From an uncultured Candidatus Saccharibacteria bacterium (GTDB lineage: Bacteria > Patescibacteriota > Minisyncoccia > Sungbacterales > JACQCQ01), in the NCBI GenBank assembly GCA_964494945.1, contig CAZBTX010000001.1, forward strand, positions 67,088-131,087: 64,000 nt of DNA. The letters run 5' to 3'. Position 1 is the first letter of the stretch, and each line of letters starts with the position of its first letter. The position numbers were made by a program, and so were the translations under genes. This document shows positions 6,401 to 59,943 of the stretch, piece after piece. The notes under the pieces are model-generated. The model saw only the letters and a program-made list of their open reading frames with translations, was not told the DNA's origin and ran no database searches.

Positions 6401-8436
6401 GGCGAAGAAGTGCCAATACCCACTCTCCCGAAAGGCGAGGATGAAGTGTCCAAAGAAAGCAGAGGATTGGCGGCTGTGGTGCTTGTCGCCAGAGACCAGG
6501 CATTGACCGTCAGGTTGGGAATGGTGCTTGTCGCCCGATTGTTGTAGACAATGTTCCCGGAGTTGATGGAGAAAAGGTCTCCGATGGCATCACCCACATA
6601 TAAAGAACCCTCCACCAGCAAAGAGGAGGCGGAAGTGGAGGCCACGGTGACTGAACCGGCCGAGGTCAGGGAATTGACATACACATCCCCCTCGGCATCC
6701 ACCAGGAACTTGGTAGAGCCATTGACCGCCAGACCCAGGAGATTGGTATCGGAGACGGCTGATGCGGGATTGATATACAGGGAAGAGTTGGACACCGCCG
6801 CATTGGCCACTCCCGTGGCCCAGGCGGGAAAGGTGTGGGGCGTTACGGGGACATAGGTAGCCACCACCTGGCCGGAACTGGTGGTGGTGGCCGAGACGGA
6901 TAGAGTTCCGTTATTAGCCGAGAACACCCCGCCCACCGAGAGCGCCCCGTGGATCTGGGTGTCTCCCGATACTTCAAAGTTGCCGGAGGTGGTGGTGGAG
7001 ACACCCACCCCCAAGCCCCCGGTGAGATATGTATGGCCGGATACGGAAAGAAGCTGGGAGGGTGAAGAAGTGCCGATGCCCACTTTATTCCCCCCAAAAT
7101 CAACCACCAGAGTATCGGTGTCTATGGTCAGTCCTCCCGCCATGGTGGAAGTGGAGGTGGTATCGGTCAGGGTCAATTTAGAGGCGGTAACTCCTGCTGT
7201 TACCGTGAGCGACCCCGTGCTCACCATAAGATCACCGGTTCTCACGGTGGCGCCGTTATAAATGTCCAGGGAGTCCAGCTTGTCTATTCTCTGCGAGACG
7301 GTCACCATCTGGAGGGAAGAGCCGGCCACGCGGGAAGTATTATTCAAGTCCCCCCGCACGGTGAAGAGGTCATGGGAGAGGGAGGCCAGTTCCACTCTGA
7401 TTTTGTTGTTTTCCTGCTGAAAGAGTTGAGAGAGCTCTTGCTTAAGACCGGCGGTGTCCGTTATGACCAGTTGTCTTTCTATGATGGTGGAGGGTTGCTC
7501 TTGCTTTTCGGCAGATGCGGCTGGTTTCTCCGGCTCTTGGCCGTTTAGCGTAAATTCAACTGTTCCCGATGGCAGGGTCAAGGATTCACGGAATTTTGAA
7601 CCCAAAAGCAAATTGGAAAAGAAGGGCCGGATGTTCTTAAAAAGTCCCGCGATATTGCCTTCGCTTTGAATGATTTTCGCGACATTCCGACCGGTGTCTT
7701 GGGTGGCGGTGAGGCCGGATTGATAGAAATTTACGGACGCACCTAAAGCCGCATTTTTTAAAGCTACAAATGTTTTGCTGAAATCATTAGGATTTGAAAT
7801 GCCACGACTAAGCGCTCCGGCCAATTTTTCTAAAGTCAGGGGAATATTTTTTGTCTTTTCATAAACTTCAGATAACCCGATATCTTTATCAGGAATAATC
7901 TGCTTATGGGACGCCGAGACAAGAATGGGATTGAGGGTTCGACTGCCGTCTTTAACCAATGCCGCCAGATCAGCACGCGCGCTTATTGCCAATATTAGAG
8001 ACAACACAGCTAAGGTGCTTATTCCTAGAGGTTTAAATTTAAAAAAGAAATTTGGAAATTCAGATACTTTCGTTCTTTGATATCCTTTTTCTTTATAAAC
8101 ATTTAGCGTATAGAAAATATTTTCTCTCGGTATGGATGAAGAAACATGGTCGGGCTCCCGCAATTTCACCGTACTTTGTATCGGTTTTATAGGTACGCTC
8201 CGGGAATCGGAACGCGGAATTTTTACGCTTCTTTTCCATGAGCGGTTGTTTAGGTATCTCGTCAATTCCTCGGCGTCAATGAACCATCCATGCCCAATTT
8301 TTTCTCCGGCTATTACCCTCCGATTAATAAGAACTCTCAAAGAGTCCGGTTTGATGCCGGATAGATCCGAGGCCTGTATTAAATTCAAGAGTTTTTGCTC
8401 CATCCCGTTAGAGACAGGAAATGCGGCGCTCCGCAT
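454..8436 (-). CDS. Giant (2660 aa) surface/secreted repeat protein. It contains about 12 copies of an SGNVGIGT(T/A)xP beta-repeat motif (tail-fibre-like), a long Gly-rich tract, and two tandem C-terminal ~150-aa domains carrying a D(L/I)AE(N/K)Y motif. A hydrophobic segment (LGISTLAVLSLILAISARA) at about residue 130 is a signal peptide or TM anchor. The true start may be the second Met at 8403.
   Basis: Uninterrupted 7983-nt ORF. Repeated motifs were read directly. Composition is Thr/Ser/Gly/Asn-rich, typical of beta-helical fibre or adhesin proteins. Confidence 0.8.
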   Translation of the reverse strand: MRSAAFPVSNGMEQKLLNLIQASDLSGIKPDSLRVLINRRVIAGEKIGHGWFIDAEELTRYLNNRSWKRSVKIPRSDSRSVPIKPIQSTVKLREPDHVSSSIPRENIFYTLNVYKEKGYQRTKVSEFPNFFFKFKPLGISTLAVLSLILAISARADLAALVKDGSRTLNPILVSASHKQIIPDKDIGLSEVYEKTKNIPLTLEKLAGALSRGISNPNDFSKTFVALKNAALGASVNFYQSGLTATQDTGRNVAKIIQSEGNIAGLFKNIRPFFSNLLLGSKFRESLTLPSGTVEFTLNGQEPEKPAASAEKQEQPSTIIERQLVITDTAGLKQELSQLFQQENNKIRVELASLSHDLFTVRGDLNNTSRVAGSSLQMVTVSQRIDKLDSLDIYNGATVRTGDLMVSTGSLTVTAGVTASKLTLTDTTSTSTMAGGLTIDTDTLVVDFGGNKVGIGTSSPSQLLSVSGHTYLTGGLGVGVSTTTSGNFEVSGDTQIHGALSVGGVFSANNGTLSVSATTTSSGQVVATYVPVTPHTFPAWATGVANAAVSNSSLYINPASAVSDTNLLGLAVNGSTKFLVDAEGDVYVNSLTSAGSVTVASTSASSLLVEGSLYVGDAIGDLFSINSGNIVYNNRATSTIPNLTVNAWSLATSTTAANPLLSLDTSSSPFGRVGIGTSSPFATLSIQSPAGTTQTAFAIGSSTATSFIVDANGDVGIGTATPDVLLTLKTPTGSPVQTPALRIYAANGVRYTDLYHYTDDDFVIKTSAGGIAFQPNNGIVSNTRTEEGTGFRSYRFQGANSNSYIDFFRGGTNQGLRLYQGTDLATAGATVYLFDDKDTDGRLTAASGNQNWMSLEPTIAQSGTAGYTVLNIDSTQTSVGSGSNYLINAQVGGSSKLAVLSSGNVGIGTTTPGQKLSVAGDILGNNFISSYFTSTSTTATSTLAGVFSVGSTTPASNSLLSVGTSSPLLFVDKSSGNVGIGTAGPGTALHVGGSGALSFGATPATTGTIRLPAGSSIMYRDAANTQDLTALSMASDYMIVGGSGALQFAYNGAVTAVFAGGSFYPEANTSIGDTGHRWTKLVLGSSSFSGNLTLIDVQNYSLTGSNASSLASLSGTLNTTGVVDVYKLAITDTAHGAGSNLLALYSGASGTTGRFVVDMSGNVGIGTTTPNWLLQVAGTRPSFALSDTSASANLKHWLFSSMGGNLYVGTSTDAYATSTPAALTISNSGNVGIGTAGPETALQVKKDITSGTVGANQIISGGSLNQNVNGSGVVTAYTGTDDGFTYGAVGGYASIDVVNNRGLGLWGISENSPASQVTYGSPDVFITQSGNVGIGTTSPATTLSVQGNALFSGNLTVANITATGTTLTLSGLPINSLLSTNASGVLTGTSTPTFGNFNATSTTATSTITGGLAIETSGLVYDFSSNNVGIGTAAPGAKLHLYNSSGGTNQYIENASTEAAATRYIINNAPTTPLYVGVDSTSGGTLALGTSASAGVIHRAGAFPLQFATNNAVAMTILSGGNVGIGTTSPGTLLSLGNTGANTINISATATSTFGSGLNVLTGCLAVNGTCVGGLPTGTDGQMLSYVGATLTATSSIFLATSGNIGVGTTSPWGNLSVEMNTTNPSFVVSNQGSSTPAFFIGGVNQNGNIGVGTTSPAEQLAVANRLYVGGTGTSTIENNLRILGTLQVGAGTSYLTTNTLNLGSGGDLQINGTSVLNATTLGSGVTGSSLTSVGTITSGTWTGATIAVANGGTGATTLTGVLKGNGTSAFTAAANGTDYTLITGTTCSAGQHVSAITASGGVTCSADTDTVVRFASIQTFTSGTDATYTTPANTSYIVVELWGNGGGAGGQGGGSGLGTGGGGGGGGYSMKSIATPAATYKYTSGGGGAGGSGGNNGTDGVKLCFGTNATACTTPLLQATGGAGGSAGNGEGGTGTPGAGGSGSSGDVNLKGNGGSSNIGGIAAGDNIGGRGGDGVTSGAGGAGTAGSIIVYEYKTVTSGADLAENYSVSDSSVSAGEIVSFDFEKPLFVKRAVRGDHRPLAGIISTQPGLLLTDKTDATGQRPVALAGRVPTKVNLEGGEIAIGDRIALSSVPGVGMKAGLFDASVGIALEPHTAASIGETILVFMNLQQGVNISALAEELFSATTTTPHLTLSSSGAEDSPALTFSGDISTGIWSLTSSMLNISTGGRERLRIDSLGNVGIGIGSATSSVSVPARLTVVGAAFSTDPLFAVFAGATSTGATTTAFVIDYTGNVGIGTTNPDPKLEVAGAGCFDTAVDTHCTAVGTAGDIYYGTAHANWTDIAEKYPSLEALESGDIISLDAGAIATATSAKPFIKKAAAGETLLGAISTQPGMVLGDDYGKSPDFSVALVGRVPVKVSTESGPIAIGNRITSSSLAGVGMKATTSGMTVGIALESFDESTTGSPTSNAAEVGLPDGRTVRTGKILVFVNLGYSKLDDAVPQLAAANSSSLATNGWSVDQSTGKVNVNFYGDVNLGGNALLGVGQIVSQNGLWKIDETGRMTMKYIEAEEINAQKIIVQNIQVKAADITQTGITIYDRATQHPVCVFSDNNVLHSEPGDCASGMSLAAPIPITSTATPIIDITGLTASTTSATTPTPEGVGAPTASVGTDTATTTPSMATTTTVTAAVSTATASTTPSI
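1657..5733. repeat. Intragenic near-identical DNA repeats of 20-29 bp with core gtcgtcccgatgccgacgttgcc. Copies lie at about 1657, 3856, 4424, 4746, 4937 and 5711. Diverged copies lie at about 3470, 3606, 4145, 5491, 6283 and 7070.
   Basis: Exact nucleotide matches read in sequence. They encode the GNVGIGT motif on the minus strand and VVPMPTLP in a plus-strand frame. Confidence 0.85.
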
Positions 8437-8527
8437 TTCCGGAAGTTAACTAGTAATCTTGTATAGAGATTTTTATCGTTTCGGTTTCATAAATCATAGA
8501 TAAAGTAAGGGGTGGGTCTCTAACGGG
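8404..8527. repeat. Element bracketed by a 10-bp inverted repeat cccgttagag ... ctctaacggg. It contains a perfect hairpin ggaaatgcggcgctccgcatttcc (8417-8440). It overlaps the first annotated ATG of the giant gene and abuts the second Met (8403).
   Basis: The same two 10-mers flank tRNA-Thr (50566/50645). 9/10 variants sit at 46179/46308. Confidence 0.6.
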
Positions 8528-8963
8528 ATCCATCAGTGTAAGTTACGAATTCGTAACTTGTTCCCGTAACTAAATTATAGAGCCGATCATCAGAATAAAC
8601 CGTGTGGATAAAGTATTTATTCCACAACTTTTTAAAAACTATTCCTTATGTTTTAACGATGTGTTTTAGTGATGAATGAGTTGAGCGGCCAAATAAATAT
8701 CCGGTATTTGATAATTTAAACGGGGATGCCCCATGGTTTTTGATGGAGCGAACTTTTTACTTAAATTTAATCGGATTAGTAGATTATTAAATATAGATTT
8801 CATTTTTCAGCTATAGCGTGGTACTGAAAAAGACCTTTATTTTGTGATCTACACGAATAAATTAGCTTAGCCGATAAGATAGCGGCTTAGAGAAATTGCT
8901 CTGGTTGCGGAAATAGGGTCAATCTGTTAACCTATATTAGCTAATAATTAAGCTGCTGACGGC

Positions 8964-9435: not shown

Positions 9436-9532
9436 ATGCAAAATGCAAAAATCAAACATCAAAATGAATGTAGCGCTGAAAGCGCCTCCTAAATTTTAAT
9501 TTTTAAATTTTAATTTTTGATTTATCTAGTTT
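9436..9532. repeat. AT-rich imperfect palindromic spacer (aaatcaaacatcaaaat / attttaatttttgattt)
   Basis: Inverted word repeats seen in sequence. Confidence 0.5.
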
Positions 9533-9533
9533 T

Positions 9534-9977
9534 ATGAATCTCAATAAGGCCATGATCATAGGCAATCTGGTGCGCGATCCGGAATTGCGCCAAACACCGA
9601 CGGGGCAGACGGTGTGTTCATTTGATATCGCGACCAATAGGGTGTGGCTTACCCCAAGCGGAGAGAAAAACCAAAAAGTTGAATACCACCGCATTGTGGC
9701 CTGGGGTAAACTTGCGGATATCTGCGGCCAATATCTTTCAAGAGGGCGCCTAGTATTTGTGGAAGGCAGGATTGAGACAAGGTCCTGGCAAGATAAAGAA
9801 AGCGGCACTAAAAGATACCGCACCGAGATCGTGGCCGAATCCATGCAAATGGGGCCGCGTCCCGGAGAGCGCGAGGAACGTCCTAAAGCCGAAACCGCAC
9901 CAGCCGTTGAAGAAGAACCGGCATCCATTCAATACCCCGGCGGCGAAGATATTGAAGTAAAAGATATACCCTTCTGA
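9534..9977 (+). CDS. ssb: Single-stranded DNA-binding protein
   Basis: MIIGNLVRDPELRQTPTGQTVCSFDIA...YHRIVAWGKLADIC is an OB-fold SSB pattern. Acidic C-terminal tail DIPF. Confidence 0.9.
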   Translation: MNLNKAMIIGNLVRDPELRQTPTGQTVCSFDIATNRVWLTPSGEKNQKVEYHRIVAWGKLADICGQYLSRGRLVFVEGRIETRSWQDKESGTKRYRTEIVAESMQMGPRPGEREERPKAETAPAVEEEPASIQYPGGEDIEVKDIPF

Positions 9978-9984
9978 CTAATAC

Positions 9985-10100
9985 TCAATTTCCAATTACT
10001 AATTTCTAATCAATGACTAATGCCCAAATTTTTAAATTGATCAATTAATCATTGGACATTGGGATTTGATTAGAAATTAGGCATTAGGGATTAGACATTT
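9985..10100. repeat. AT-rich palindromic spacer element built from the words aatttctaat / caatgactaat. It shares an exact 21-bp segment (aatttctaatcaatgactaat, 10001-10021) with the reverse complement at 23963-23983.
   Basis: Seen in sequence. Confidence 0.7.
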
Positions 10101-14270: not shown

Positions 14271-14431
14271 ATCCGATAATACTTGCCTATTGTATCATTT
14301 TACCCCCATACCCAAGAAGCTACACCCGGGAGAAGGCGCAAACTTAGTAGGGCGTGAGGGTTTACTCCGCGCCCAGAAAGCCGCGTTTTTTAAAGCGGGG
14401 ACGAGAATAGATACAAATCTACTTGCGGCAA

Positions 14432-14473
14432 AATCATACGTTCAATTTGCGGTCGCAAATTGAACGTATGATT
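14432..14473. repeat. 42-bp perfect palindrome (20-bp arms, aatcatacgttcaatttgcg-gt-cgcaaattgaacgtatgatt) downstream of rpoC
   Basis: Seen in sequence. Confidence 0.8.
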
Positions 14474-14476
14474 TTT

Positions 14477-14506
14477 AAAAGCCCCCGACGTACGTCGGGG
14501 GCTTTT
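14477..14506. terminator. Bidirectional intrinsic terminator aaaagcccccgacgtacgtcgggggctttt after rpoC
   Basis: Perfect GC-rich hairpin flanked by A and T runs. Confidence 0.8.
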
Positions 14507-14518
14507 AAATCAGCAAGA

Positions 14519-23874: not shown

Positions 23875-24006
23875 ATCAAACCGGCATTAAAATTCCTAAT
23901 TTCTAATGCTCAATTCCTAATCAAATCCAAATACCCAATGACCAATTTAAGAATTTGGACATTAGTCATTGATTAGAAATTATGAATTAGACATTAGAAA
24001 TTCCGC
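23875..24006. repeat. AT-rich palindromic spacer element, same family as 9985-10100
   Basis: attagtcattgattagaaatt (23963-23983) is the exact reverse complement of 10001-10021. Arms aatttctaatg / cattagaaatt. Confidence 0.7.
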
Positions 24007-30847: not shown

Positions 30848-31116
30848 CGCCAAATTATATCATACCGTAAAGTATGATATAATTGGGTATAAAGTTTGAG
30901 CTATGAAACGCACCGTAAAATCCGAACGGCGGGAAAAGAAGAAAAAACGTCATTTAAAACGTCAATCCGGCAGGGGCGTTTTCTTGCTGGCTAAAATTAT
31001 ACGCGCTAAGAAATAATTGATCTCGTTAGAGATAGGAAATGACAGTCATTTCCGTCCGGCACTTCTTTAGTTTGAGGATATAACTTTGATTAAGGATGGT
31101 ATGATACAGTTTCAGC

Positions 31117-31527
31117 ATGGCGCCAGCATCTCTAACGGGGTTGACTGGTACCCATCTTTCGGTTATTCTTATAGAGCCAGAACCTACCCCCATGGGGCTA
31201 ATCTCTAAATTGATAGCAAGGGTTGCGCTGAATGCCGCCGTCATATACGGTATTGCGTATTACTTGCCCGGATTCCAAATTTCAGGCGGCACTAAAGGGC
31301 TGATACTCGCCGCTTTAGTGGTGGCACTGGCGCATTTTATCTTGCGCCCCATTTTAAAACTCATTTCCTTCCCGCTTCTAATCTTCACTTTCGGGTTTTT
31401 CAACATAGTCATTAATTTTTTCCTGTTATGGGCGGCCGATGCTTACTCAACCGCGCTAACCATTGCCGACTTGAAAACTCTATTTATTTCATCTATCATC
31501 ATTGGGTTCATAAACTCAATTTTCTAA
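31117..31527 (+). CDS. Small multi-TM membrane protein, DUF360 / phage-holin-4-like. Likely true start about 31192 (MGLISKL).
   Basis: Three or four hydrophobic helices. Resembles the YvlD/DUF360 family. Confidence 0.4.
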   Translation: MAPASLTGLTGTHLSVILIEPEPTPMGLISKLIARVALNAAVIYGIAYYLPGFQISGGTKGLILAALVVALAHFILRPILKLISFPLLIFTFGFFNIVINFFLLWAADAYSTALTIADLKTLFISSIIIGFINSIF

Positions 31528-46058: not shown

Positions 46059-46177
46059 GTATTATGTTTCACTCCCCCATTGTCAAACATTTCACGCTGA
46101 ATTCTGATAAAAACAAAAAATGGCTTAATTGAGCCAATTTTTATAAAAACTCTATTGACTAATTCACAGGTTTTCCA

Positions 46178-46317
46178 CCCCGTTAGAAGTCCGCTTTCAC
46201 TATAGGAATAACTTTCTAGTGATGAAGCCAATATTGTGCTAGGACATCTTTTTTGATTTTAAGACGCAAAAGAAAGCGGCAGCCCCGACGTGACGTGGGG
46301 GCTTACTTCTAACGGGG
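46178..46317. repeat. Element bracketed by a 13-bp inverted repeat ccccgttagaagt / acttctaacgggg. It contains the hairpin agccccgacgtgacgtgggggct (46281-46303). It is a 9/10 variant of the cccgttagag / ctctaacggg elements at 8404-8527 and around tRNA-Thr.
   Basis: Seen in sequence. Sits at the left edge of the compositional island. Confidence 0.6.
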
Positions 46318-46364
46318 TCCACTCTACTAAAACTAGCTAAGTTCAATTGACAATCTTTTATCCT

Positions 46365-46451
46365 ATGCTTAGCTATAGCCAGTTCATTTCACAACCCTCC
46401 TTCTTAGCTGGAAGTGCCGTTAGAACAACGACCTTTCCACCCTGAGGAGGA
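46365..46451 (+). promoter_or_regulatory. Leader/promoter repeat A, copy 1 (~87 bp). Contains a TTCACA/TTGACA-like hexamer, the anti-SD-like stretch ccctcct, and the SD gaggagg.
   Basis: About 85% identical to 47322-47410. Its RBS portion is also repeated at 46912-46934. Confidence 0.6.
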
Positions 46452-46459
46452 ACTCAATA

Positions 46460-46645
46460 ATGCCAATCAGTAAGAACCGTCAACAGATGATCGGCCTCCG
46501 CCGGCTGAACGCACTGCTGAGAGTTCTCAGCTCGGCTCGCAAGGCAATTCGCCACTTCCAGCAGGGCCGTGAGGCGTGGGGGCGAGCCGCTCTCGCAGAG
46601 CTGGAACGGAATCTCCAGAGCCCGAACCTACCGAAACAGAAGTGA
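46460..46645 (+). CDS. Hypothetical 61-aa basic helical protein (island ORF1, high GC)
   Basis: ORF with strong SD, preceded by repeat A. Confidence 0.4.
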   Translation: MPISKNRQQMIGLRRLNALLRVLSSARKAIRHFQQGREAWGRAALAELERNLQSPNLPKQK

Positions 46646-46658
46646 GAGGAAACCTCTA

Positions 46659-46904
46659 ATGCCCAACTTCAATGCCGGATACCGGAGAATTGCCGAGTGC
46701 ATCTTTTTCTCGGGCATCGACGAACGCCGTTTGCTTACCCTCGCGACTTATCGCAAGAGCAAGACCTTCGCTGACGTTCGAATCGCAGTCGAAAAAGCAA
46801 AAGCAAGCTGGCACCGGAGACCGTTCAGAGATGTAGAGACACGCATCAGCGATGCGATTCGCGAAGTGGTGATCCCGAACGCCGCCGCATGCAAGGAAGA
46901 TTAG
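46659..46904 (+). CDS. Hypothetical 81-aa protein (island ORF2). Start at ATG 46659 with SD gagagg; the track ORF 46569-46904 overlaps ORF1.
   Basis: Frame-consistent ATG 13 nt after the ORF1 stop. Confidence 0.4.
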   Translation: MPNFNAGYRRIAECIFFSGIDERRLLTLATYRKSKTFADVRIAVEKAKASWHRRPFRDVETRISDAIREVVIPNAAACKED

Positions 46905-46939
46905 CAACCGCACGACCTTTCCACCCTGAGGAGGATTAA

Positions 46940-47257
46940 ATGAGATTGAGAATTGAAACCGGAGGTATACCCGTCACCGGATACGAAGTTCACGCACGGC
47001 TTCGGGGAGGACGCATTGTCTTCCGTATCTGGGATGGACAGAGGAACTCCTACGCGACAGATGAGATCACGGGGGCCGACGCGTGTGGCCGCTTGATCCG
47101 GTTTGAAGGCCGGCGAAATAAGCGGCTAACTCCCGCCGAAGCATCGCGGCGCGTGCAGAATGCAAAGGAGGACGGCTTCGAGTCGCCCTTCGTGACGTCT
47201 GGTGAGCTTCGTGATCCTTGGAAACAAGAAGGTCGACAAATAAGGCGCGGCATCTAG
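46940..47257 (+). CDS. Hypothetical 105-aa protein (island ORF3)
   Basis: Preceded by the repeated RBS module gacctttccaccctgaggagga. Confidence 0.4.
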   Translation: MRLRIETGGIPVTGYEVHARLRGGRIVFRIWDGQRNSYATDEITGADACGRLIRFEGRRNKRLTPAEASRRVQNAKEDGFESPFVTSGELRDPWKQEGRQIRRGI

Positions 47258-47276
47258 AGCCGCCCACTGCAAACGG

Positions 47277-47315
47277 GAAGCCGCCCATGCAGTACGGGCG
47301 GCTTCTTCTTTTTTC
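47277..47315 (+). terminator. Intrinsic terminator, repeat B copy 1: gaagccgccc-atgcagtac-gggcggcttc plus T-tract
   Basis: 10-bp perfect stem followed by ttcttctttttt. Confidence 0.8.
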
Positions 47316-47321
47316 TAAAAT

Positions 47322-47410
47322 ATGCTTAGCTATAGCCAGTTCGTTTGACAAACCCTCCTTCTTAGTTGGAAGCGCCTCTAACCAAGAGACCTTTCCACCC
47401 TGAGAAGGAG
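47322..47410 (+). promoter_or_regulatory. Leader/promoter repeat A, copy 2 (tttgacaaaccctccttcttagttggaag ... cctgagaaggag)
   Basis: Near-identical to 46365-46451. Confidence 0.6.
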
Positions 47411-47420
47411 AAGCTGGCAG

Positions 47421-47735
47421 ATGTCATTCAATGCCCTCCAGGAGATCCGCAAGCGGCGAGCAAGACATTCATTTTTCAGGGCATCCAGAGAAGCAAGAAA
47501 GGACAGAGCGAAGGGTTATAGGGTCATCTCAATTAGTCTCTATAACCAGCAAGCCGAAGCCGTTGACTGGGCAATGAACGTCCTACGCCGCGCCGGATAC
47601 CTCAACGCGAGCCGTTCGTTCGTCATACAGACCCTCATTGAACAGTGTCTTGAGGGTAAGAGCCCGAGAGAAATAGAGCGGTTCTTCGAGGGGCGCAGGA
47701 TGAATTTGCTAAAGCCGCGCTCACGCAAGAAATAA
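47421..47735 (+). CDS. Ribbon-helix-helix (CopG/Arc-like) DNA-binding protein, 104 aa (island ORF4)
   Basis: Beta-strand YRVISISL followed by two helices (YNQQAEAVDWAMNVLRRAGY; SRSFVIQTLIEQCL). Basic flanks. Confidence 0.45.
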   Translation: MSFNALQEIRKRRARHSFFRASREARKDRAKGYRVISISLYNQQAEAVDWAMNVLRRAGYLNASRSFVIQTLIEQCLEGKSPREIERFFEGRRMNLLKPRSRKK

Positions 47736-47746
47736 AGGAGGTAGCC

Positions 47747-48055
47747 GTGAGTGAGATTGTATCGCCGTGTAACGGTCTAGCGCGATGCTTCCGCCACCAA
47801 ACTAGATGCTCACGAATCGTGCTGACATCGCGGGAAGAGTATGCCGCACGCCAGCGCCGCAAAACGAGGCGCCGTCGTCTCTGGCGCATAATCCGTGAGC
47901 ATTATCGGGTCGGCGTAAAGTGGGGGCTAGACCCCATCCCGCACCGATACCACCTACAGGCGGTTCTCCTGATGGAGCGGGTGCGTGGTGAAGAGGAGCT
48001 ACGACAGCGTTTAGTAGCCAGCGGGCACATGGCACCCGAAAAAGAAGTAAGCTAA
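47747..48055 (+). CDS. Hypothetical 102-aa Arg-rich protein (island ORF5), GTG start after AGGAGG
   Basis: ORF plus SD spacing. Confidence 0.35.
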   Translation: MSEIVSPCNGLARCFRHQTRCSRIVLTSREEYAARQRRKTRRRRLWRIIREHYRVGVKWGLDPIPHRYHLQAVLLMERVRGEEELRQRLVASGHMAPEKEVS

Positions 48056-48109
48056 TAAGACCAATCCCGCAACGAGGAGAAGTTCTTCCGCCATGAGGAG
48101 GACAAGACA

Positions 48110-48499
48110 ATGAAGGCCACGTTGATAGAGTTCCCGTACAGCGTTGATACCGGTGATGAGTGCAAGGGGCCCCGGCGCCATACAGTGAAGTGCGGTGCCA
48201 TTCTCTTCGAGGATGGCGAACATAAGGTGCTCTTCCTCCAAGGCACTTACGACAGGCAGGGTGCGTTCTTCCATGTCACTGAGATGGAAGATGGCCGCCC
48301 CAAACTTGAGGGACACCTCTGGGATTATCGTGCGCCAGACGGTCCGGTGACCTCAATCAGGGAGCTCCCCTTCACTGAGGACCAGATACGTGCAGCGCTC
48401 GCGATGCCCGAGAAGCAGGAGTTGCTCCAGAACATTGCTCGGTCAATCAAGGAGATTGCCAAGCTCTGTGGCGAAACGGTACCAAGAATGAGTTACTAG
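48110..48499 (+). CDS. Hypothetical 129-aa protein (island ORF6)
   Basis: ORF preceded by gaggagga. Confidence 0.4.
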   Translation: MKATLIEFPYSVDTGDECKGPRRHTVKCGAILFEDGEHKVLFLQGTYDRQGAFFHVTEMEDGRPKLEGHLWDYRAPDGPVTSIRELPFTEDQIRAALAMPEKQELLQNIARSIKEIAKLCGETVPRMSY

Positions 48500-48584
48500 A
48501 CCTCGGCATCTCCGAGCTCCGAATGGTCACACACGAGAACTTTCGGCGCAAGAATGCGTTAACAAGCCGCCACACTGCAAACGG

Positions 48585-48623
48585 AAGACCGCCCAGCAGT
48601 ACGGGCGGCTTCTTCATTCTCAA
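48585..48623 (+). terminator. Intrinsic terminator, repeat B copy 2: gaagaccgccc-agcagtac-gggcggcttc
   Basis: About 50 bp near-identical to 47264-47315, including the upstream cactgcaaacgg segment. Confidence 0.65.
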
Positions 48624-48666
48624 CACGTTTTCTAAAGAAATTGTTTAAGTTATTCTGGGGTTATAT

Positions 48667-49131
48667 CTATAACAAAAGATTATCAATAGTATTTATTACA
48701 TACATAGCGTCAGAATGATACTTATATACTTCCGCCAAGGTAACCGTGATTGGTTGTCCATGAGCTAAAGCATTTTTATTTTCTACGATACTATTTAATG
48801 CATCTCGATTTTGTCTTGGAATACTGCGGACAGCGGCTTTCCAGGTCGGATTAAATCTACCCAAGAGTTCCCCAATCTTTTCCGTATCTGGATTACGGAA
48901 ATTATTCCCTAAGGAACTTTTGACAAAATTACTGATTCCATTGTTTCTAATCATGGAAACCATCTCATTTACAATTGTTTCAACAACCTCTTCATAAATT
49001 CCACAAATATAAACCACTAAAAATTTAGCTAAATATGCTTGCTCTAAATGAGAGGCTGAGGTAAAACTTTTAATATCCTTAATAGCATCATCGATCTGGA
49101 GAAGAAGATTACTAGCATTAAGACTTTTCAT
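48667..49131 (-). CDS. Hypothetical 154-aa alpha-helical partner protein, overlapping the DUF262 gene by 14 nt. The C-terminal segment ENKNALAHG weakly resembles a HEPN R/KNxxxH motif.
   Basis: Translational coupling with the upstream gene. Low GC (~33%). Confidence 0.5.
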   Translation of the reverse strand: MKSLNASNLLLQIDDAIKDIKSFTSASHLEQAYLAKFLVVYICGIYEEVVETIVNEMVSMIRNNGISNFVKSSLGNNFRNPDTEKIGELLGRFNPTWKAAVRSIPRQNRDALNSIVENKNALAHGQPITVTLAEVYKYHSDAMYVINTIDNLLL

Positions 49132-50236
49132 AGCCTAGATATTTGATAGCCATCCTAATTCTCCCCTGAACCTTATCTATATCCGTTGTTCCAGTAGAAA
49201 TATAGGATTTAAAACTCTCATTAGTCTTTAGTTTATTGTATTTCTTCTTGAGATCCTGGTCATTTTTATTAAGTAATATAGATGCAACTCCTACAGAAAC
49301 TGCGTCAAAAAGAGCTACATTAATTCCGGCTTTTATTCGGAAAGCATCTTTACCAATTTTCTTATACACAGTATTCATCACTTTAATGAAAATATTTTTA
49401 TATTTTTCTTGATCACCCTCAGATATATTACTTTTACTTTTCATGAAATCGGTTATAAAATCCTTCATAGGTTTTTTATAAGTCCTCCAACCATAATAGA
49501 GTGCAAAAAAACGAAGGATCATCTCTATGTCCTTCATACGTGTGTCTGATGTTGGCCTCTTGAGCAATTTCCTCCAGCTATCACATTGATTTAATGTGTG
49601 AAGAAATGAATTTATTTCTCCCTGAATAACTGCATTCCTTATTTCCTGTTGATTCAAAGGCATACCTCCCGTATTAAGGCGATAAAAAATTTCATAAATA
49701 CTTCTCTTATCTTGTGGATCAATCTGCTCAAAGACTGTGGCACGCAAAACTGTATTATTTAATTTACGTTTATCGGCGTCTGAAAGTTCTGCAAATAGCT
49801 TATTATTCCAAGGAGAATGCACTTCTTTTAGACGAAATGGGGCTCCATTTTCAAATGAACCCCTCAAATAGTACAGAATTGTCTTTAATCTCTGCTGTCC
49901 GTCAACTACAATTAGCTTTTCATCACCTTCTTTATACAGAAATACTTGAGGAACTGGGAGCCCAAGAAGAAATGATTCAATTAATTTACTAGCTTTTCGT
50001 TCGGGCCAAACATATTTTCTCTGAATAGTAGGCACATAGATATCCCCGTTAGAAAGCTGTTTAACCAAAACTTCAAGAGTATAGTCGGCCCCATAGGTCC
50101 TAATCTTATAAGAAGCTACATCTTCTTCTGAATCACGTTCTTCCGATTGGAGTTTCTCCAATACTAAATCCGATGCGGTTTGTTCATCCTCTATAGTATG
50201 CTCTGTTACAATAATTTTAACTCTTTTCTTCTTCAT
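49118..50236 (-). CDS. DUF262 (ParB-like, DGQQR-motif) domain protein, 372 aa, with no fused DUF1524/HNH nuclease
   Basis: Motifs LIVVDGQQRLKT and FYRLNTGGMPLNQQEIRNA are characteristic of the DUF262 N-domain of GmrSD-type enzymes. Confidence 0.7.
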   Translation of the reverse strand: MKKKRVKIIVTEHTIEDEQTASDLVLEKLQSEERDSEEDVASYKIRTYGADYTLEVLVKQLSNGDIYVPTIQRKYVWPERKASKLIESFLLGLPVPQVFLYKEGDEKLIVVDGQQRLKTILYYLRGSFENGAPFRLKEVHSPWNNKLFAELSDADKRKLNNTVLRATVFEQIDPQDKRSIYEIFYRLNTGGMPLNQQEIRNAVIQGEINSFLHTLNQCDSWRKLLKRPTSDTRMKDIEMILRFFALYYGWRTYKKPMKDFITDFMKSKSNISEGDQEKYKNIFIKVMNTVYKKIGKDAFRIKAGINVALFDAVSVGVASILLNKNDQDLKKKYNKLKTNESFKSYISTGTTDIDKVQGRIRMAIKYLGYEKS

Positions 50237-50276
50237 ACTTGTGGGCAGTGCAGGATTCTCACGATGACTATCGGGA

Positions 50277-50314
50277 TCCCGACTTCTTTATTTTATATCT
50301 GAATGTGCGTCGGG
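50277..50314. promoter_or_regulatory. Promoter-like element tcccgacttc-(AT-rich with TATAAAA on minus)-gtgcgtcggg upstream of the DUF262 operon. Direct repeat of 50720-50760.
   Basis: Shared 10-bp ends that are inverted repeats of each other (cccgac/gtcggg) flank an AT-rich -10-like box. Confidence 0.45.
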
Positions 50315-50348: not shown

Positions 50349-50433
50349 TAATTCTGATGGGCAGGGTGAGAGTCGAACTCACAGGGCCATTTAAGACAGC
50401 GGATTTACAGTCCGCCCCCGCCCCCTACGGGTC
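50349..50433 (-). tRNA. tRNA-Tyr (anticodon GTA), long variable arm
   Basis: Minus strand: acceptor GGGCAGG/CCTGCCC, anticodon stem GCGGA/TCCGC with loop containing GTA, T-arm GTGAG-TTCGACT-CTCAC. The D-arm assignment is less clean. Confidence 0.75.
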
Positions 50434-50573
50434 TACCTGCCCATATATTATCTAGATTTTTAAGAGCTTCCATAGCCCATACCTTTTGCCAAGAGCCGAG
50501 GGCGAGATTCACCTAGACCGCTGACTGCGTCAGCAGTCGGCCAAGGGAACTCGCGACCTGTTTATCCCGTTAG

Positions 50574-50645
50574 AGCCGACCCCGAGATTCGAACTCGGAA
50601 CCTACGGTTTACAAAACCGTTGCTCTACCATTGAGCTAGGTCGGC
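50574..50645 (-). tRNA. tRNA-Thr (anticodon TGT)
   Basis: Minus strand GCCGACCTAGCTCAATGGTAGAGCAACGGTTTTGTAAACCGTAGGTTCCGAGTTCGAATCTCGGGGTCGGCT. All four stems pair. Flanked by the 10-bp inverted repeat cccgttagag / ctctaacggg. Confidence 0.9.
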
Positions 50646-50719
50646 TCTAACGGGACTGGCGCAAAACAGTTGCACTGCCTACCGGCGGGCAGGTCTACCG
50701 CTCCGACGTTTAGTCAGAG

Positions 50720-50760
50720 TCCCGACTTCACTTCTTAAAATTATACAATAGTGCGTCGGG
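50720..50760. promoter_or_regulatory. Promoter-like element upstream of the tRNA-Thr/Tyr operon (minus strand, extended -10 TTGTATAAT). Direct repeat of 50277-50314.
   Basis: Minus-strand reading is cccgacgcactattgtataattttaagaagtgaagtcggg. Confidence 0.5.
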
Positions 50761-50777
50761 GCTGAGCTAAGGTGGCG

Positions 50778-52884: not shown

Positions 52885-52990
52885 AAAATTTCTAATCCAT
52901 AATTTCTAGTCAAATCCTAATGACTAATTTTTATGTGTTGGGTTTTCCGGCATTCATTAGAAATTAGTGATTAGATATTAGATATTGAAG
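52885..52990. repeat. AT-rich palindromic spacer element of the aatttctaat / aatgactaat family
   Basis: aatttctaat (52888) pairs with attagaaatt (52956). tcctaatgactaat is shared with the 10003 copy. Confidence 0.65.
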
Positions 52991-54039: not shown

Positions 54040-54137
54040 CAACTTACCGATACTATATTTCCCCCATACCATATATGTTTCCCATAGGAAACATATATGG
54101 TATGGGGGTTCGGTAATTCAGAGGTTTGAAGCTCGTC

Positions 54138-55490: not shown

Positions 55491-55574
55491 AAAAAACAGC
55501 TTGCTACCAGCGGCTGCTTTAGATTATATCACAGAAAAACCCCCGACCTAGGTCGGGGGTTTTTCTGATTCAAA

Positions 55575-56869: not shown

Positions 56870-57868
56870 TCAAATATGAATGGCGTTGGGCGCGGGATTT
56901 CCTGCCAAAACTTCTAAAATATTCTTTGCCGCGACCTCACCCATTTTTTGCCGAGTTTCTTCCGTGGCCGAGGCAATATGCGGAGTAACGATAATGTTAT
57001 CTAAATCTTTCAACATCGGCTCCATGGCGGGCTCGTTCTCAAAAACATCAATGGCCGCACCCCTAATTATTTTGTCGCGCAGAGCTTCGGCCAGCGCTTT
57101 CTCGTCTACGATCGGCCCACGGGAAGTGTTCACTAAATAAGCCGTGGGTTTCATCAAGCGAAGCCGCTCGGCATTTACCAGATGATGCGTTGTCGGCAAA
57201 AGCGGCACGTGAATGGAAACAAAATCAGCTTCCTTAAAAATATCTTCAGGCGCGGCTCTAAACTCCGCCCCAACTTCTTTCTCAAAATCCCCGTTCCTTT
57301 TTACGTCGTAATACAAAACACGCATATCAAAGCCCTTAGCGCCGTGGTGTGCCACGCGGGAGCCAATCCTGCCGAGACCCACAATGCCCAGCGTTTTATG
57401 CGATAAATCAGTACCTAAAAGCAATTCCGGCTCCCAGCCGATATATTTCCCCGCGCGCATGAATTTGTCAGCTTCAGCCACCCTGTGCGCTATAGCAAGC
57501 ATTAGCGCGAAAGTATGTTCCGCTACAGTTTCTGTTAGAACATCCGGCGTATTTGATATGGTAATCCCTAATTCTTTAGCGGCTGCGACGTCAACGTTGT
57601 CATAACCCACAGCGTAATTGGCAACGATCTTGACGCTTCCCTTCCACGCCTCAAGCACTTCGAGGGTAACTTTATCCGTTAATTGCGTCAAAACCGCGTC
57701 CTGGTCTTTTCCGCCGTCAATTAATTCTGGCGGCGTTAACACGCGGTCATGCGGGCTAATTGTTATCTCATGCCCCGCTGACGTCAACATGTCTATGCCA
57801 TGATTTAGAATTTTTCTGGTGATGAAGATTCTCATGTTTGAACTCAAAACCCAAAGGGCAAAAATCAA
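56870..57868 (-). CDS. D-isomer-specific 2-hydroxyacid dehydrogenase (glyoxylate/hydroxypyruvate reductase-like)
   Basis: NAD-binding GLGRIGSRVA, catalytic-domain blocks. Confidence 0.8.
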   Translation of the reverse strand: MIFALWVLSSNMRIFITRKILNHGIDMLTSAGHEITISPHDRVLTPPELIDGGKDQDAVLTQLTDKVTLEVLEAWKGSVKIVANYAVGYDNVDVAAAKELGITISNTPDVLTETVAEHTFALMLAIAHRVAEADKFMRAGKYIGWEPELLLGTDLSHKTLGIVGLGRIGSRVAHHGAKGFDMRVLYYDVKRNGDFEKEVGAEFRAAPEDIFKEADFVSIHVPLLPTTHHLVNAERLRLMKPTAYLVNTSRGPIVDEKALAEALRDKIIRGAAIDVFENEPAMEPMLKDLDNIIVTPHIASATEETRQKMGEVAAKNILEVLAGNPAPNAIHI

Positions 57869-57950
57869 AAATTCAAGTTAGAAGTCAAAACTGAACGGGA
57901 ACTTTTGGATTTTGACTTGCACTTTTGTATTTTGATTTTTGACTTTTGAT
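57855..57950. repeat. AT-rich palindromic spacer (aaaatcaaaaattcaagttagaagtcaaaa ... ttttgacttttgatt)
   Basis: Seen in sequence. Confidence 0.5.
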
Positions 57951-58832
57951 TTATAATTTATCAACTGCTCCAAATAATCTTAGTTTTTCTTCAACGACTT
58001 GCTTCAGTATATCACGTGCGGCGGTATCGTATTTATACGGCGTCGTTTCGTCGGGTTTCTTCGCTAATTCCTCTCTTAGCGCCTTAGAATAAGCTACGCG
58101 GATGTCGGTATTTATGTGAATATTGGCGATACCGGCGGCGATTGCGGCTTTGATTTGTTCATCGGGGATGCCGGAACCGGCATGCAATACCAGCGCTACT
58201 GATTCGGGAACAGACCCACGTATTTTTCGTATCAATTCAATATCCAACGCCGGCTCATCCAGCGAAATGCCATGAATATTGCCTACGGCAATAGCCAGAC
58301 GATCCACTCCGGTTTTAGCGACAAACTCGGCGGCTTCTTCCGGTTTCGTATAACTTTCGGGGCTAATCTCAATTTTCTCTTTATGAATTTTTGACTCCCC
58401 CGCCAAGTAACCCAATTCCCCTTCCACATTAATGCTTGTCCCTTGTCCCTTGTCGCTTGTTACTCTGCTTGCGTATTCCACAATTTCTTTTGTCCCCGCA
58501 ACGTTGTTTTCATACGTTTCCGCGGAGAGATCAATATGGATTGAATCATATCCCGCATCAACTGCGGTTTTGGCTGCTTCAACGCTCTTATGATGATCAG
58601 CATTAAGAAAAACGGGTATGCCGAATTCTTTTCTGAAAGCGTCCCGGAGAGCTGCGGCCTCAAGATAACCTAGGTGTTTGGCTTCACTCTCCGAAGTACC
58701 GATAATGGCAACCGTATTAAGTTCTTTAGCCGCTTCAACTACAGCGCGCATTTGGTCGGACTCGGACGCGTTAAAATGGCCGGTTGCCCAACTCCCCCTT
58801 GTTGCCTTCATTAAAATTTCTTTCAGCGTCAT
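57951..58832 (-). CDS. fba: Fructose-bisphosphate aldolase class II. ATG at 58832 (MTLKEILMK) preferred over the track's TTG at 58850.
   Basis: HFNASESDQM ... LNADHHKS ... IHIDLS class II FBA blocks. Confidence 0.85.
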   Translation of the reverse strand: MTLKEILMKATRGSWATGHFNASESDQMRAVVEAAKELNTVAIIGTSESEAKHLGYLEAAALRDAFRKEFGIPVFLNADHHKSVEAAKTAVDAGYDSIHIDLSAETYENNVAGTKEIVEYASRVTSDKGQGTSINVEGELGYLAGESKIHKEKIEISPESYTKPEEAAEFVAKTGVDRLAIAVGNIHGISLDEPALDIELIRKIRGSVPESVALVLHAGSGIPDEQIKAAIAAGIANIHINTDIRVAYSKALREELAKKPDETTPYKYDTAARDILKQVVEEKLRLFGAVDKL

Positions 58833-58834
58833 GT

Positions 58835-58948
58835 AATTTCTAATTTCCAATTTTCAATTTCTAATTTTCAATCAAATCCCAATGTTTCAATGCTCTAAAC
58901 GTTTGAAAATTAAATCATTGAAAATTCATTGAAAATTGAAAATTGAGA
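58835..58948. repeat. AT-rich palindromic spacer element (aatttctaat / ttttcaatt / caatcaaatcccaatg words)
   Basis: Arms pair. Shares caaatcccaatg with the 10050 region (reverse-complement orientation). Confidence 0.6.
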
Positions 58949-58950
58949 AT

Positions 58951-59943
58951 TTACAGAAGCTTCGGCTCATAATCCGCCGGGGCTTCGGCCAAATATTTTT
59001 CCAATTGAGAACGCGACAAAAGTCCCGCCCGAGCGCCAATTTGCTGTACCACCGACATGGAATTCACCGGACCCCAAGTAAGGGCAGTTTTTAGATCGTT
59101 CCCCAGCGCTAAAGCCGCGGTAATGGTTGACGAAAAAGCATCTCCCGCACCGGTGCGCGATAGCGGCGGCTTAGGGTCGGGATAGATCGGCATCTGCCAT
59201 ATTGTACTGCCATCCGAAGCGTAGGCCCCAGCCGGGCCATCGGTGATGCAGACCATTTTGGGTCCCAAAGCGTGAATACTGAAAATAAGTTTTTTTATGT
59301 CGTCTTCTTTGGTATTTAGAATTCTTTGGGCCTCATCGCGATTACAGAAGAATATTTCAGTATGTTTGTATATTCTAGATAATGCTTCGGCACCGAACTT
59401 AATTTGATAGGTACCGGGCTGAAACGCCAGTTTTATATTCTTATGGGACTCCAAATAATCGGCGATGGTATTATGCATGGGCAGTGAATTTTCTCCGGCC
59501 GAAGAAAGGTATAACCACTTGGGCGAGCCCACATCCGGCATTTCGTAATCAAATTTTTCGTGTTTTATTAATATGGTCCTGTCGTCATGGAACCAAAGCA
59601 CGTAATGGTAATTGGTTTTCTTGCCGGGATTTACTTTAATGAAGCGCGTGTCCATGCCTTCGGCTGAAAGCGCCCCAATTATCTCCTTCCCATCATCATC
59701 ATCTCCAACGTTGGAAACAAACGCTGTTTTTAAGCCAAGACGCGCCGCGGCCGAGGCGGCATTAGCGCTATTTCCCACCCCCGGGACGACGGTAACGCTC
59801 TCGTACGGCACCTTGTCGCCGAAGTGGAAACAAATCTCTTTGGCCCCGTGGTCAATATCCACATGAGCCGTAACGTCCGATAAGCGAATAAACGCGTCCG
59901 TCACCGTGTCACCAATAGCTATAAAATCATATCGTGCTGACAT
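58951..59943 (-). CDS. PfkB-family carbohydrate kinase
   Basis: C-terminal GAGDAF motif. N-terminal GG-type sugar-binding pattern. Confidence 0.8.
   Translation of the reverse strand: MSARYDFIAIGDTVTDAFIRLSDVTAHVDIDHGAKEICFHFGDKVPYESVTVVPGVGNSANAASAAARLGLKTAFVSNVGDDDDGKEIIGALSAEGMDTRFIKVNPGKKTNYHYVLWFHDDRTILIKHEKFDYEMPDVGSPKWLYLSSAGENSLPMHNTIADYLESHKNIKLAFQPGTYQIKFGAEALSRIYKHTEIFFCNRDEAQRILNTKEDDIKKLIFSIHALGPKMVCITDGPAGAYASDGSTIWQMPIYPDPKPPLSRTGAGDAFSSTITAALALGNDLKTALTWGPVNSMSVVQQIGARAGLLSRSQLEKYLAEAPADYEPKLL

Follow-up and report, generated by a model that had tools for sequence, protein, structure and literature searches.

The window analysed here, a stretch of 64,000 nucleotides from a contig of an uncultured Candidatus Saccharibacteria bacterium (CAZBTX010000001.1), carries genes of the type found in Patescibacteria or the Candidate Phyla Radiation (CPR): a short EF-Ts, the group MraZ-RsmH-PBP, the group S6-SSB-S18 and a gene of 2,649 aa with GNVGIGT repeats, here called the giant gene. 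By an exact protein match the window belongs to the MAG GCA_016181625.1, and the closest named EF-Ts proteins are those of Candidatus Sungbacteria. The window contains four copies, A to D, of a short element that is bounded by a pair of inverted arms. In copy A, CCCGTTAGAG at 8404 is paired with CTCTAACGGG at 8518, and in copy C CCCGTTAGAG at 50566 is paired with CTCTAACGGG at 50645. Copy B has a variant pair with nine of the ten positions, CCCGTTAGAA at 46179 and TTCTAACGGG at 46307. These three pairs had been reported in an earlier sequence-only reading of the window and all of them exist as reported, whereas the fourth pair, CTCGTTAGAG at 31022 with CTCTAACGGG at 31130 (copy D), was absent from its list. 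The following features belong to the four copies; the spans of the elements include the pyrimidine (Y) or purine (R) base that flanks each arm.

8403-8528, minus strand: copy A, a cargo-less element with arms at 8403-8416 and 8515-8528, abutting the start codon of the giant gene.
8399-8402, no strand: left copy of the target duplication of A, TCCA (TGGA on the gene strand).
8529-8532, no strand: right copy of the target duplication of A, TCCA; when base 8533 is included, the minus strand has ATGGA here, which is the original start codon in its displaced position.
8417-8440, no strand: sub-terminal hairpin of A (GGAAATGCGG / CCGCATTTCC), beside the arm that touches the gene start; its fold z-score is -6.4 on the minus strand.
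31021-31140, plus strand: copy D, a cargo-less element with a hairpin at 31035-31053 and with arm and hairpin sequence in common with A.
31017-31020, no strand: left copy of the target duplication of D, TTGA, overlapping the stop codon of a 37-codon open reading frame (ORF).
31141-31144, no strand: right copy of the target duplication of D, TTGA; its TTG is in frame with a holin-like ORF.
46178-46317, plus strand: copy B, a cargo-less element with variant arms (ACCCCGTTAGAAGT / ACTTCTAACGGGGT) and a hairpin at 46281-46303, in the divergent region between mraZ and the genes of a small genomic island.
46174-46177, no strand: left copy of the target duplication of B, TCCA.
46318-46321, no strand: right copy of the target duplication of B, TCCA.
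50565-50655, minus strand: copy C, the cargo version, whose arms bracket a complete tRNA-Thr(UGU) gene (50573/4-50645).

The arms are clearly in excess over chance, as the earlier reading had claimed. The 8-mer CCGTTAGA occurs 12 times in the window, where 1.55 occurrences are expected, and none of 100 shuffled sequences reached 12; the paired 10-mer pattern did not occur at all in shuffled sequence. That one of the pairs encloses a tRNA-Thr was borne out as well, since the arms of copy C bracket the gene, on the minus strand, exactly. The arms of the window copies are 13-14 bp long and five of the eight carry the exact 10-mer; in the left arm of D, the only mismatch is a G-U pair on the plus strand. 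All four loci fold with a long terminal helix (fold z-scores from -3.7 to -8.5), and in A (8417-8440), D (31035-31053) and B (46281-46303) a strong hairpin adjoins one arm only. The sequence of arm and hairpin that A and D have in common (CGTTAGAGAYAGGAAATG..CATTTCCG) goes beyond the 10-mers, and these two copies are therefore homologous over more than the 10-mer itself. A and B are oriented with the gene downstream of them, as had been stated for each copy, whereas D is not.

A collection with one genome per species was scanned for the two 10-mers at a distance of 69-129 nt. They were found at this distance in at least 120 loci, with about 30 expected by chance for the whole collection. The matched records come overwhelmingly from Patescibacteria (Saccharibacteria and many lineages of Parcubacteria) and from Omnitrophota, and further matches lie in metagenome-assembled genomes (MAGs) labelled Planctomycetota, Elusimicrobia, WOR-3, Nitrospirota, Geobacteraceae and Syntrophaceae. 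Viral contigs contained neither the element nor the bracketed tRNA, and a phage origin was rejected for this reason. Fetched loci are labelled with L and a number in the following, and the counts given below rest on 144 elements (143 for the pairing of the arms). It has to be considered that the search pattern itself prescribed arm positions 1-9 and, for most loci, also position 10; their invariance among the matches is therefore no evidence of conservation.

The elements of this collection have a common architecture. They are 90-140 bp long and bounded by Y-CCCGTTAGAG-NN ... NN-CTCTAACGGG-R, which gives terminal inverted repeats of 12-13 bp. The dominant type has about 115 bp and consists of CCCGTTAGAGAYAGG, a hairpin with a co-varying stem, CCGT, an AT-rich variable stretch of about 75 nt and RTCTCTAACGGG. 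A second type, chiefly from Omnitrophota, has several internal hairpins and short terminal palindromes. Next to the four copies in the 64-kb window, up to three copies were found per 8-kb locus elsewhere; several loci have two or three copies, some of them in tandem at a single site (L066, L117). The elements have no coding capacity, as the frames are closed in most copies, and no protein recurs beside them in the fetched loci. In Rfam 15, only the tRNAs reach the gathering threshold; the next-best hits are at chance level (MIR1886 with 14 bits, and the Deinococcus Y RNA with 22.5 bits against a threshold of 80). The searchable literature contains the arm sequence only in unrelated primers, and publications on miniature inverted-repeat transposable elements (MITEs) in CPR or at start codons, on tRNA introns of Patescibacteria and on nested tRNAs do not describe this family; coverage of the literature is incomplete, so that a prior description is possible.

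The edges of the elements carry the signature of transposition. The 4-mer at positions -5 to -2 equals the 4-mer at +2 to +5 in 93 of the 144 elements, against 0-2 matches when the register is shifted by one to three bases. Positions -1 and +1 hold Y and R, and since these two bases are complementary in 140 of 144 cases, they belong to the element. With the duplication as a guide to orientation, the sites give the target logo R|T(G/A)AA. Exact duplications are present at three copies in the window (TCCA at A, TCCA at B and TTGA at D). A fixed, non-mobile signal for RNA processing would not create an exact duplication of four bases of variable local sequence, and the unrelated interiors of the different subfamilies and the tandem copies speak against such a signal as well. 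The suggestion of MITE-like elements, one of several made in the sequence-only reading, is thus supported by the terminal inverted repeats, by the exact 4-bp duplications at A, B and D and by the dispersed copies in many genomes. With these defining features at hand the elements are MITEs, save for the missing autonomous partner. We consider it very probable that a single family of non-autonomous DNA transposons gave rise to all four loci, that some of its members are start-codon insertions and that copy C is a version with a tRNA as cargo. Copies B and D are ordinary intergenic insertions.

Other kinds of mobile or recombining elements fit less well. Elements of the REP/REPIN type, moved by a RAYT (a single-strand transposase like those of IS200/IS605), are of similar size and high copy number and have hairpin-forming ends, and the subtype from Omnitrophota with its short terminal palindromes comes close to them. 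The target duplication found here, however, is not produced by HUH single-strand transposition; moreover, the GTAG head is absent and no RAYT-like gene is recurrent nearby, which makes this explanation extremely unlikely. Recombinase target sites, another suggestion of the sequence-only reading, were not substantiated either: no recombinase recurs near the elements, and independent assemblies over A, B and the left edge of D contain no inverted variant. A tyrosine-recombinase core with a 6-bp overlap was rejected, because the duplication is confined to the central 4 bp and the bases at -6 and +1 agree in only 70 of 144 elements. An attC-like integron site was rejected because the order of RYYYAAC at the 5' and GTTRRRY at the 3' side is reversed on both strands (GTTAGAG ... 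CTCTAAC). Autonomous copies were looked for among long arm pairs and likewise rejected, as these enclose only housekeeping genes.

It is possible to compare the ends of the elements with known transposon families. Those of ISEcp1 and piggyBac also contain CC(C)..TAGA, which is a lead only. The piggyBac superfamily creates 4-bp duplications of the TTAA type (with the variants TAAA, TCAA and GTAA) and has repeats starting with CCC; IS1380 is its prokaryotic relative (PMC10813416). The elements described here share with piggyBac and IS1380 a 4-bp T..A target duplication and CCC...GGG ends (PMC10813416). They differ from piggyBac in their target, R|TRAA and not TTAA. Since no transposase was found here, it is the end signatures that carry this link; they suggest that a piggyBac/IS1380-type DDE transposase could mobilise the elements in trans.

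Comparison of assemblies gives a few further hints on individual copies. The syntenic locus L125 has no copy B; its homology to the window starts exactly at the edge of B and only one flank can be aligned. For A and D, all contigs from the source population are 100% identical. One MAG contig from NCBI lacks 52 nt (window 30995-31046; L212 position 4509), which comprise the left arm and half of the hairpin of D, and two independent assemblies (contig ends L213 and L214) stop at 31044 inside D. This gap is probably an assembly failure at the hairpin repeat and not an excision. Directly before copy D, at 30904-31017, lies the 37-codon ORF mentioned above; it is rich in Lys and Arg (MKRTVKSERREKKKKRHLKRQSG...) and may be a small ribosomal-protein-like gene.

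A large part of the family lies exactly at the start of genes. An ORF of at least 80 aa is abutted with zero spacing by 67 of the 144 elements, and in 49 of these 67 cases the upstream copy reads ATG. The rebuilt start codon consists of the terminal purine of the element and the TG of the duplication, while the original ATG stays on the far side. With targets like ATGAA or GTGAA and a purine at the end of the element, an insertion at a start codon thus leaves the old ATG upstream and rebuilds an ATG or GTG. Elements with a terminal G leave the gene with a GTG start, although the displaced copy is ATG (L021 gmd, L083 ackA, and L094). At copy A, the order is ATGGAT, the element, and then ATGGAGCAA...; the ATG of the giant gene occupies 8403-8401 on the minus strand, so that the element ends with base 8403, which at the same time serves as the A of this ATG. 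The NCBI gene call begins at the same base. Pfam domains begin at residues 2-5 (profile positions 1-2) in the products of topA, murG (two cases), typA/BipA, ruvC, ackA, gmd and a GATase (glutamine amidotransferase) gene, the ribosomal protein L17 being an exception with a match that starts at residue 20. The junctions are therefore the true N-termini of housekeeping genes. The start codon of rplQ, the gene of L17, is occupied exactly in three lineages (L040, L028, L122), as a result of either repeated hits or an old insertion.

The preference for start codons was quantified after in-silico removal of the elements from the 50 loci concerned, by comparing RTGRA sites at called starts with those in other intergenic DNA. 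Exact-duplication insertions amount to 48 at start codons versus 11 of the TG type elsewhere, and the available RTGRA sites number 124 versus 479. Of the 41 start-codon copies that have a one-sided hairpin, 32 have it next to the gene. Since non-genic copies show the same orientation of the hairpin relative to the duplicated 4-mer, this bias may be mechanistic and not selected.

Several ways in which the elements could act on the genes behind them were considered. A leader peptide that runs through the element and is coupled to the downstream start was rejected, as the upstream frame is open to the end in 18 of 67 cases only. An internal promoter was rejected too, because there is no consistent sigma-70-like site and the match in A is at the level of shuffled sequences. 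The idea that elements interrupt coding genes which are restored by excision was abandoned, since the "restored" upstream frames are not real genes. One might also think of invertons, in which a recombinase flips an AT-rich segment of about 100 bp and thereby toggles, for example, the giant surface protein. In favor of such promoter switches, the AT-rich segments are flanked by inverted repeats, lie directly upstream of genes and occur in both orientations across the loci, and A contains a weak promoter-like match toward the giant gene. This match is no better than in shuffles, independent assemblies over A have the same orientation, target duplications flank the elements, no recombinase is a neighbor and a tRNA would be senseless as a flipped segment; the inverton explanation is therefore scarcely credible.

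Copy C is of special interest because of its cargo. Its arms continue the acceptor stem of tRNA-Thr(UGU) to a perfect helix of 17 bp (50565-50581 with 50639-50655). Near-identical bracketed tRNA-Thr genes with the same flanks are present in L147, L149, L154, L181 and L205. Outside the element, the remnants of an older tRNA gene can be recognized:

50656-50776, minus strand: 5' remnants of an older host tRNA-Thr(UGU), GCCACCTTAGCTCAGC (50776-50761) and GCAACTGTTTTG (50673-50662).
50492-50564, minus strand: 3' remnants of the same host tRNA-Thr, TAAACAGGTCGCGAGTTC (50564-50547) and GAATCTCGCCCTCGGCTCT (50510-50492), the T-loop being split by a 36-nt insertion.

The 5' remnants are separated by other small inverted-repeat insertions, and the same halves are uninterrupted in L147. 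Copy C is inserted in the anticodon loop of a resident tRNA-Thr that is now degraded, and the preferred target there is GTAAA. In the close relative L124 (EF-Ts 92% identical) and in L125 (62%), the order of tsf, a small ORF, tRNA-Thr(UGU) and tRNA-Tyr is the same as in the window, and their tRNAs have different sequences and no arms. More distant relatives, with an EF-Ts identity of 41-51%, have the bracketed tRNA-Thr downstream of tsf, some with nearly the same tRNA and flanks.

Two further observations concern the surroundings of copy C. The resident tRNA-Tyr (50356-50443, minus strand) is strongly unlike that of L124; it scores 38.5 bits with the Rfam tRNA model and is missed at default filters. 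In addition, a second inverted-repeat module, CCCGACGCAC..(TATAAT-like box)..GAAGTCGGGA, is present at about 50268-50312, at about 50690-50745 and in L124 at 1549-1600. In the window, one site precedes the remnant of tRNA-Tyr and the other lies within the D-loop of the remnant host tRNA-Thr; the module may be a mobile promoter-like unit.

The cargo version is not restricted to tRNA-Thr. A metagenome scan with the pattern arm, 46-76 nt, T-loop consensus, 9-14 nt, arm matched 79 loci, and in 70 of them (54 distinct loci) the arms bracket a genuine tRNA. These are tRNAs for Thr (CGU, UGU, GGU), Leu (CAG, UAG), Arg (UCU) and Pro (CGG), and in every case the acceptor stem is lengthened by the arms. 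The flanks of the cargo elements are usually the halves of a tRNA of the same isotype, with the break in the anticodon loop or in the D-loop; the anticodon-loop break ...NGT|AAA contains the preferred target GTAAA. In 10 of the 54 loci, the host tRNA is of the matching isotype and is called as intact by ARAGORN once the insert has been excised in silico, and many others have decayed but recognizable halves. L131 and L198 show a clean TAAA duplication within the anticodon loop. In L153 (about 9480-9800, minus-strand orientation), tRNA-Arg(UCU) is even nested three deep, each inner gene having arms on both sides and being inserted at one and the same D-loop site of the next gene outward. No tRNA is interrupted by a cargo-less element. 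Where an insertion destroys a tRNA, it would persist only when the element itself supplies a replacement of that isotype, and such a survival filter would explain the nesting in cognate tRNAs. The proposal that the arms are processing signals derived from tRNA flanks has the direction of descent wrong: most members of the family have no tRNA, and the tRNA versions resemble cargo-bearing members inside an older tRNA of the same isotype. The cargo units could spread by transposition or by recombination through the conserved tRNA halves.

The arms are complementary beyond the positions fixed by the search. Arm positions 10, 11 and 12 form Watson-Crick pairs in 142, 126 and 130 of 143 elements, compared to 120, 81 and 54 after shuffling of the partners, and position 12 uses three alternative pairs (T-A, C-G and A-T). 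This co-variation could be caused by selection for pairing, in RNA or in single-stranded DNA, or by the demand of the transposase of each lineage at both ends. The pairing might also be that of a signal which does not move at all, the arm helix being read by a sequence-specific RNA enzyme and serving as punctuation of transcripts around tRNAs and ahead of genes. The exact 10-mer in five of the eight window arms fits protein recognition (the arms of the collection, fixed by the search, are uninformative in this respect), and the three next arm positions co-vary to keep the pairing. Further points for this explanation are that the arms extend the acceptor stems of many different tRNAs in register, that on the sense strand of the tRNA flank position 2 has more G-U than A-C pairs and that the bracket of the tsf-linked tRNA-Thr is kept in L154 though the tRNA stems have changed. 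It is very unlikely all the same: apart from the duplications, the interiors and the tandem copies discussed above, isoacceptors are unbracketed in the window (Leu-CAG, Glu) and in close relatives, and there is no Rfam family.

A number of observations weigh against the interpretation as a transposon family or at least against its simple form. Copy C has no target duplication (TTTA versus CTGG), and an exact duplication is missing in 51 of the 144 elements. For A, B and D, no clean empty site could be recovered in which both flanks align, and about 1.5 Mb of fetched DNA, which is DNA adjacent to the MITEs and not whole genomes, yielded neither a transposase nor an autonomous element with these ends. 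The extra Y/R base between duplication and CCC is not a property of piggyBac. The enrichment at start codons is far beyond the prediction from the target sequence, so that targeting or selection is missing from the model. Many cargo elements have constant, non-matching flanks (CTTG on one side and TGAA or TAAA on the other), whichever the direction of the tRNA, and this is not predicted by simple cut-and-paste. Finally, the ratio of G-U to A-C is 32 to 9 at one flank position of the cargo elements, which is suggestive only, and these copies are related by descent; the asymmetry is not seen in the mRNA-associated copies (7 versus 5).

How genes remain functional next to a MITE might be explained at the level of RNA. 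In transcripts, the arms would pair to a helix of at least 13 bp, stacked on the sub-terminal hairpin or on the acceptor stem of the tRNA, and a double-strand-specific RNase would cut this helix. In the case of the cargo version, the cleavage would make the tRNA, whose CCA is not encoded, accessible to RNase P and to trimming at the 3' end; in the case of the start-codon insertions, it would leave downstream mRNAs with a very short leader. The pairing of the arms in the pre-tRNA may well serve processing. Both the mobilisation of the elements and the continued expression of the genes are steps that we infer.

There are well-described elements with similar properties. Correia elements (CREE/NEMIS) of Neisseria are also small, non-coding, multi-copy and gene-adjacent, and their terminal repeats fold into a long mRNA hairpin. 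Cleavage of the folded Correia repeats by RNase III is established in Neisseria and is the closest documented parallel to the cleavage proposed here. However, the arms described here have 12-13 bp and not 26 bp, and the duplication is 4 bp (TRAA) instead of TA; the family also spans several phyla, whereas Correia elements are confined to one genus, and it rebuilds start codons at zero distance and in part carries tRNA genes. Rickettsia palindromic elements (RPEs) are likewise short palindromic mobile elements that are tolerated at unusual places of essential genes. In contrast to RPEs, which lie in frame within coding sequences and are translated, the elements of the present family avoid coding sequence and sit at the first codon. 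The sole insertion seen in a coding sequence is L010 (5741-5863), in frame and without stops inside an fpg/mutM-like ORF. Non-canonical tRNA introns and split or permuted tRNAs of archaea resemble the cargo version, as their insertions in the D-loop or anticodon loop are closed by a helix and are thought to spread as mobile elements. They differ in that the insert described here holds a complete second tRNA of the same isotype and that many of the hosts have decayed. In addition, by our reading of the sequences there is no bulge-helix-bulge; at the junctions, either the helix runs on or there is a symmetric internal loop. Since the host is a bacterium, an endonuclease of the EndA type is not expected.

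The elements might, besides being transposons, be removed from RNA like introns, with the paired ends triggering cutting and re-ligation and thereby restoring tRNAs and the arrangement of ribosome-binding site and start. This would fit the position of elements exactly on the start codons of essential genes, where removal together with one 4-mer recreates the original mRNA; for A, the predicted junction is ...ATGGA directly joined to GCAAAAACTC. It would also fit the ten host tRNAs that are intact after in-silico removal and the need of the arms to pair. Efficient excision, though, would make sites in coding sequences tolerable, and real coding sequences are nearly free of elements, L010 being in frame. 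Every element inserted in a tRNA carries a replacement of the same isotype, which is unnecessary under splicing; furthermore, the junctions have no bulge-helix-bulge and no enzyme was identified. Removal of this kind is very unlikely.

A related process, SOS splicing, has been shown only in animals and requires AKAP17A, CAAP1 and RTCB; the recognized pattern are the paired inverted repeats of transposons in the transcript, and the paper names bacteria as an open test (PMC12779559). By analogy, the paired ends of the present family might be cut from the transcript by a host endonuclease, perhaps together with an RtcB-like ligase. Tolerance of the insertions at start codons and in tRNA genes would then follow from the recognition of the sequence-conserved paired ends in RNA by this endonuclease. 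Unlike in SOS splicing, the elements are known from DNA alone, and their avoidance of coding sequences argues against efficient excision. Such a bacterial counterpart, which would have a defined, sequence-specific substrate in many uncultured lineages, is unlikely.

In regard to the genomic island, two of the elements had been supposed to bound it. However, B has its own intact TCCA duplications and is therefore a self-contained insertion, and the other edge of the island is marked by a copy of a tRNA-Tyr 3' end and not by C. The region between B and the tRNAs contains hypothetical genes, a gene for GmrSD (49118-50236, minus strand) and a HEPN RiboL-PSP gene (48667-49131, minus strand). This region is absent in the syntenic L125, which has a different gene of 193 aa there. 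The island (46322-50240) ends at the 20-nt copy (50241-50260) of the 3' end of a tRNA-Tyr of the L124/L125 type, and this looks like an ordinary scar of the tRNA-targeted integration of a small defence island. No sign of a mobilisation of the island by the elements was found at the locus.

The window also contains other repeats. AT-rich heptamer-like imperfect inverted repeats (AATTTCTAAT..) are intergenic at 9987-10092, 23891-24002, 52887-52979, 57841-57959 and 58831-58951. A cyanobacterial origin, which such heptamer repeats had suggested, was dropped, as the gene content and the source MAG are of the Patescibacteria type. Perfect palindromes of 18-22 bp lie between convergent or tandem genes at 14430-14509, 54061-54108 and 55532-55567, and several of them share a CCCCGAC core with the hairpin of copy B.

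Three properties are unusual in a MITE family, namely the wide range of lineages with one arm sequence, the insertion at start codons with regeneration of the codon, and a tRNA cargo that nests in cognate tRNAs. The elements are also of practical relevance. Annotation is misled, because the longest ORFs extend into the element (recurring N-terminal extensions of the form "..FPISNG-M") and start codons are mis-set; assembly contigs break inside the element, and nested tRNA halves confuse tRNA finders. The family is also a concrete bacterial substrate for testing inverted-repeat-triggered RNA excision outside animals. Furthermore, topA, murG, typA, ruvC and rplQ keep their function despite a structured insert of 120 nt at the first codon, which poses a puzzle of translation initiation in organisms that have not yet been grown alone. 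The searchable literature holds no description of mobile tRNA replacement. The tRNA-carrying members would be mobile tRNA genes that overwrite the resident copy, and thus a route for the horizontal replacement of tRNAs in very small genomes.

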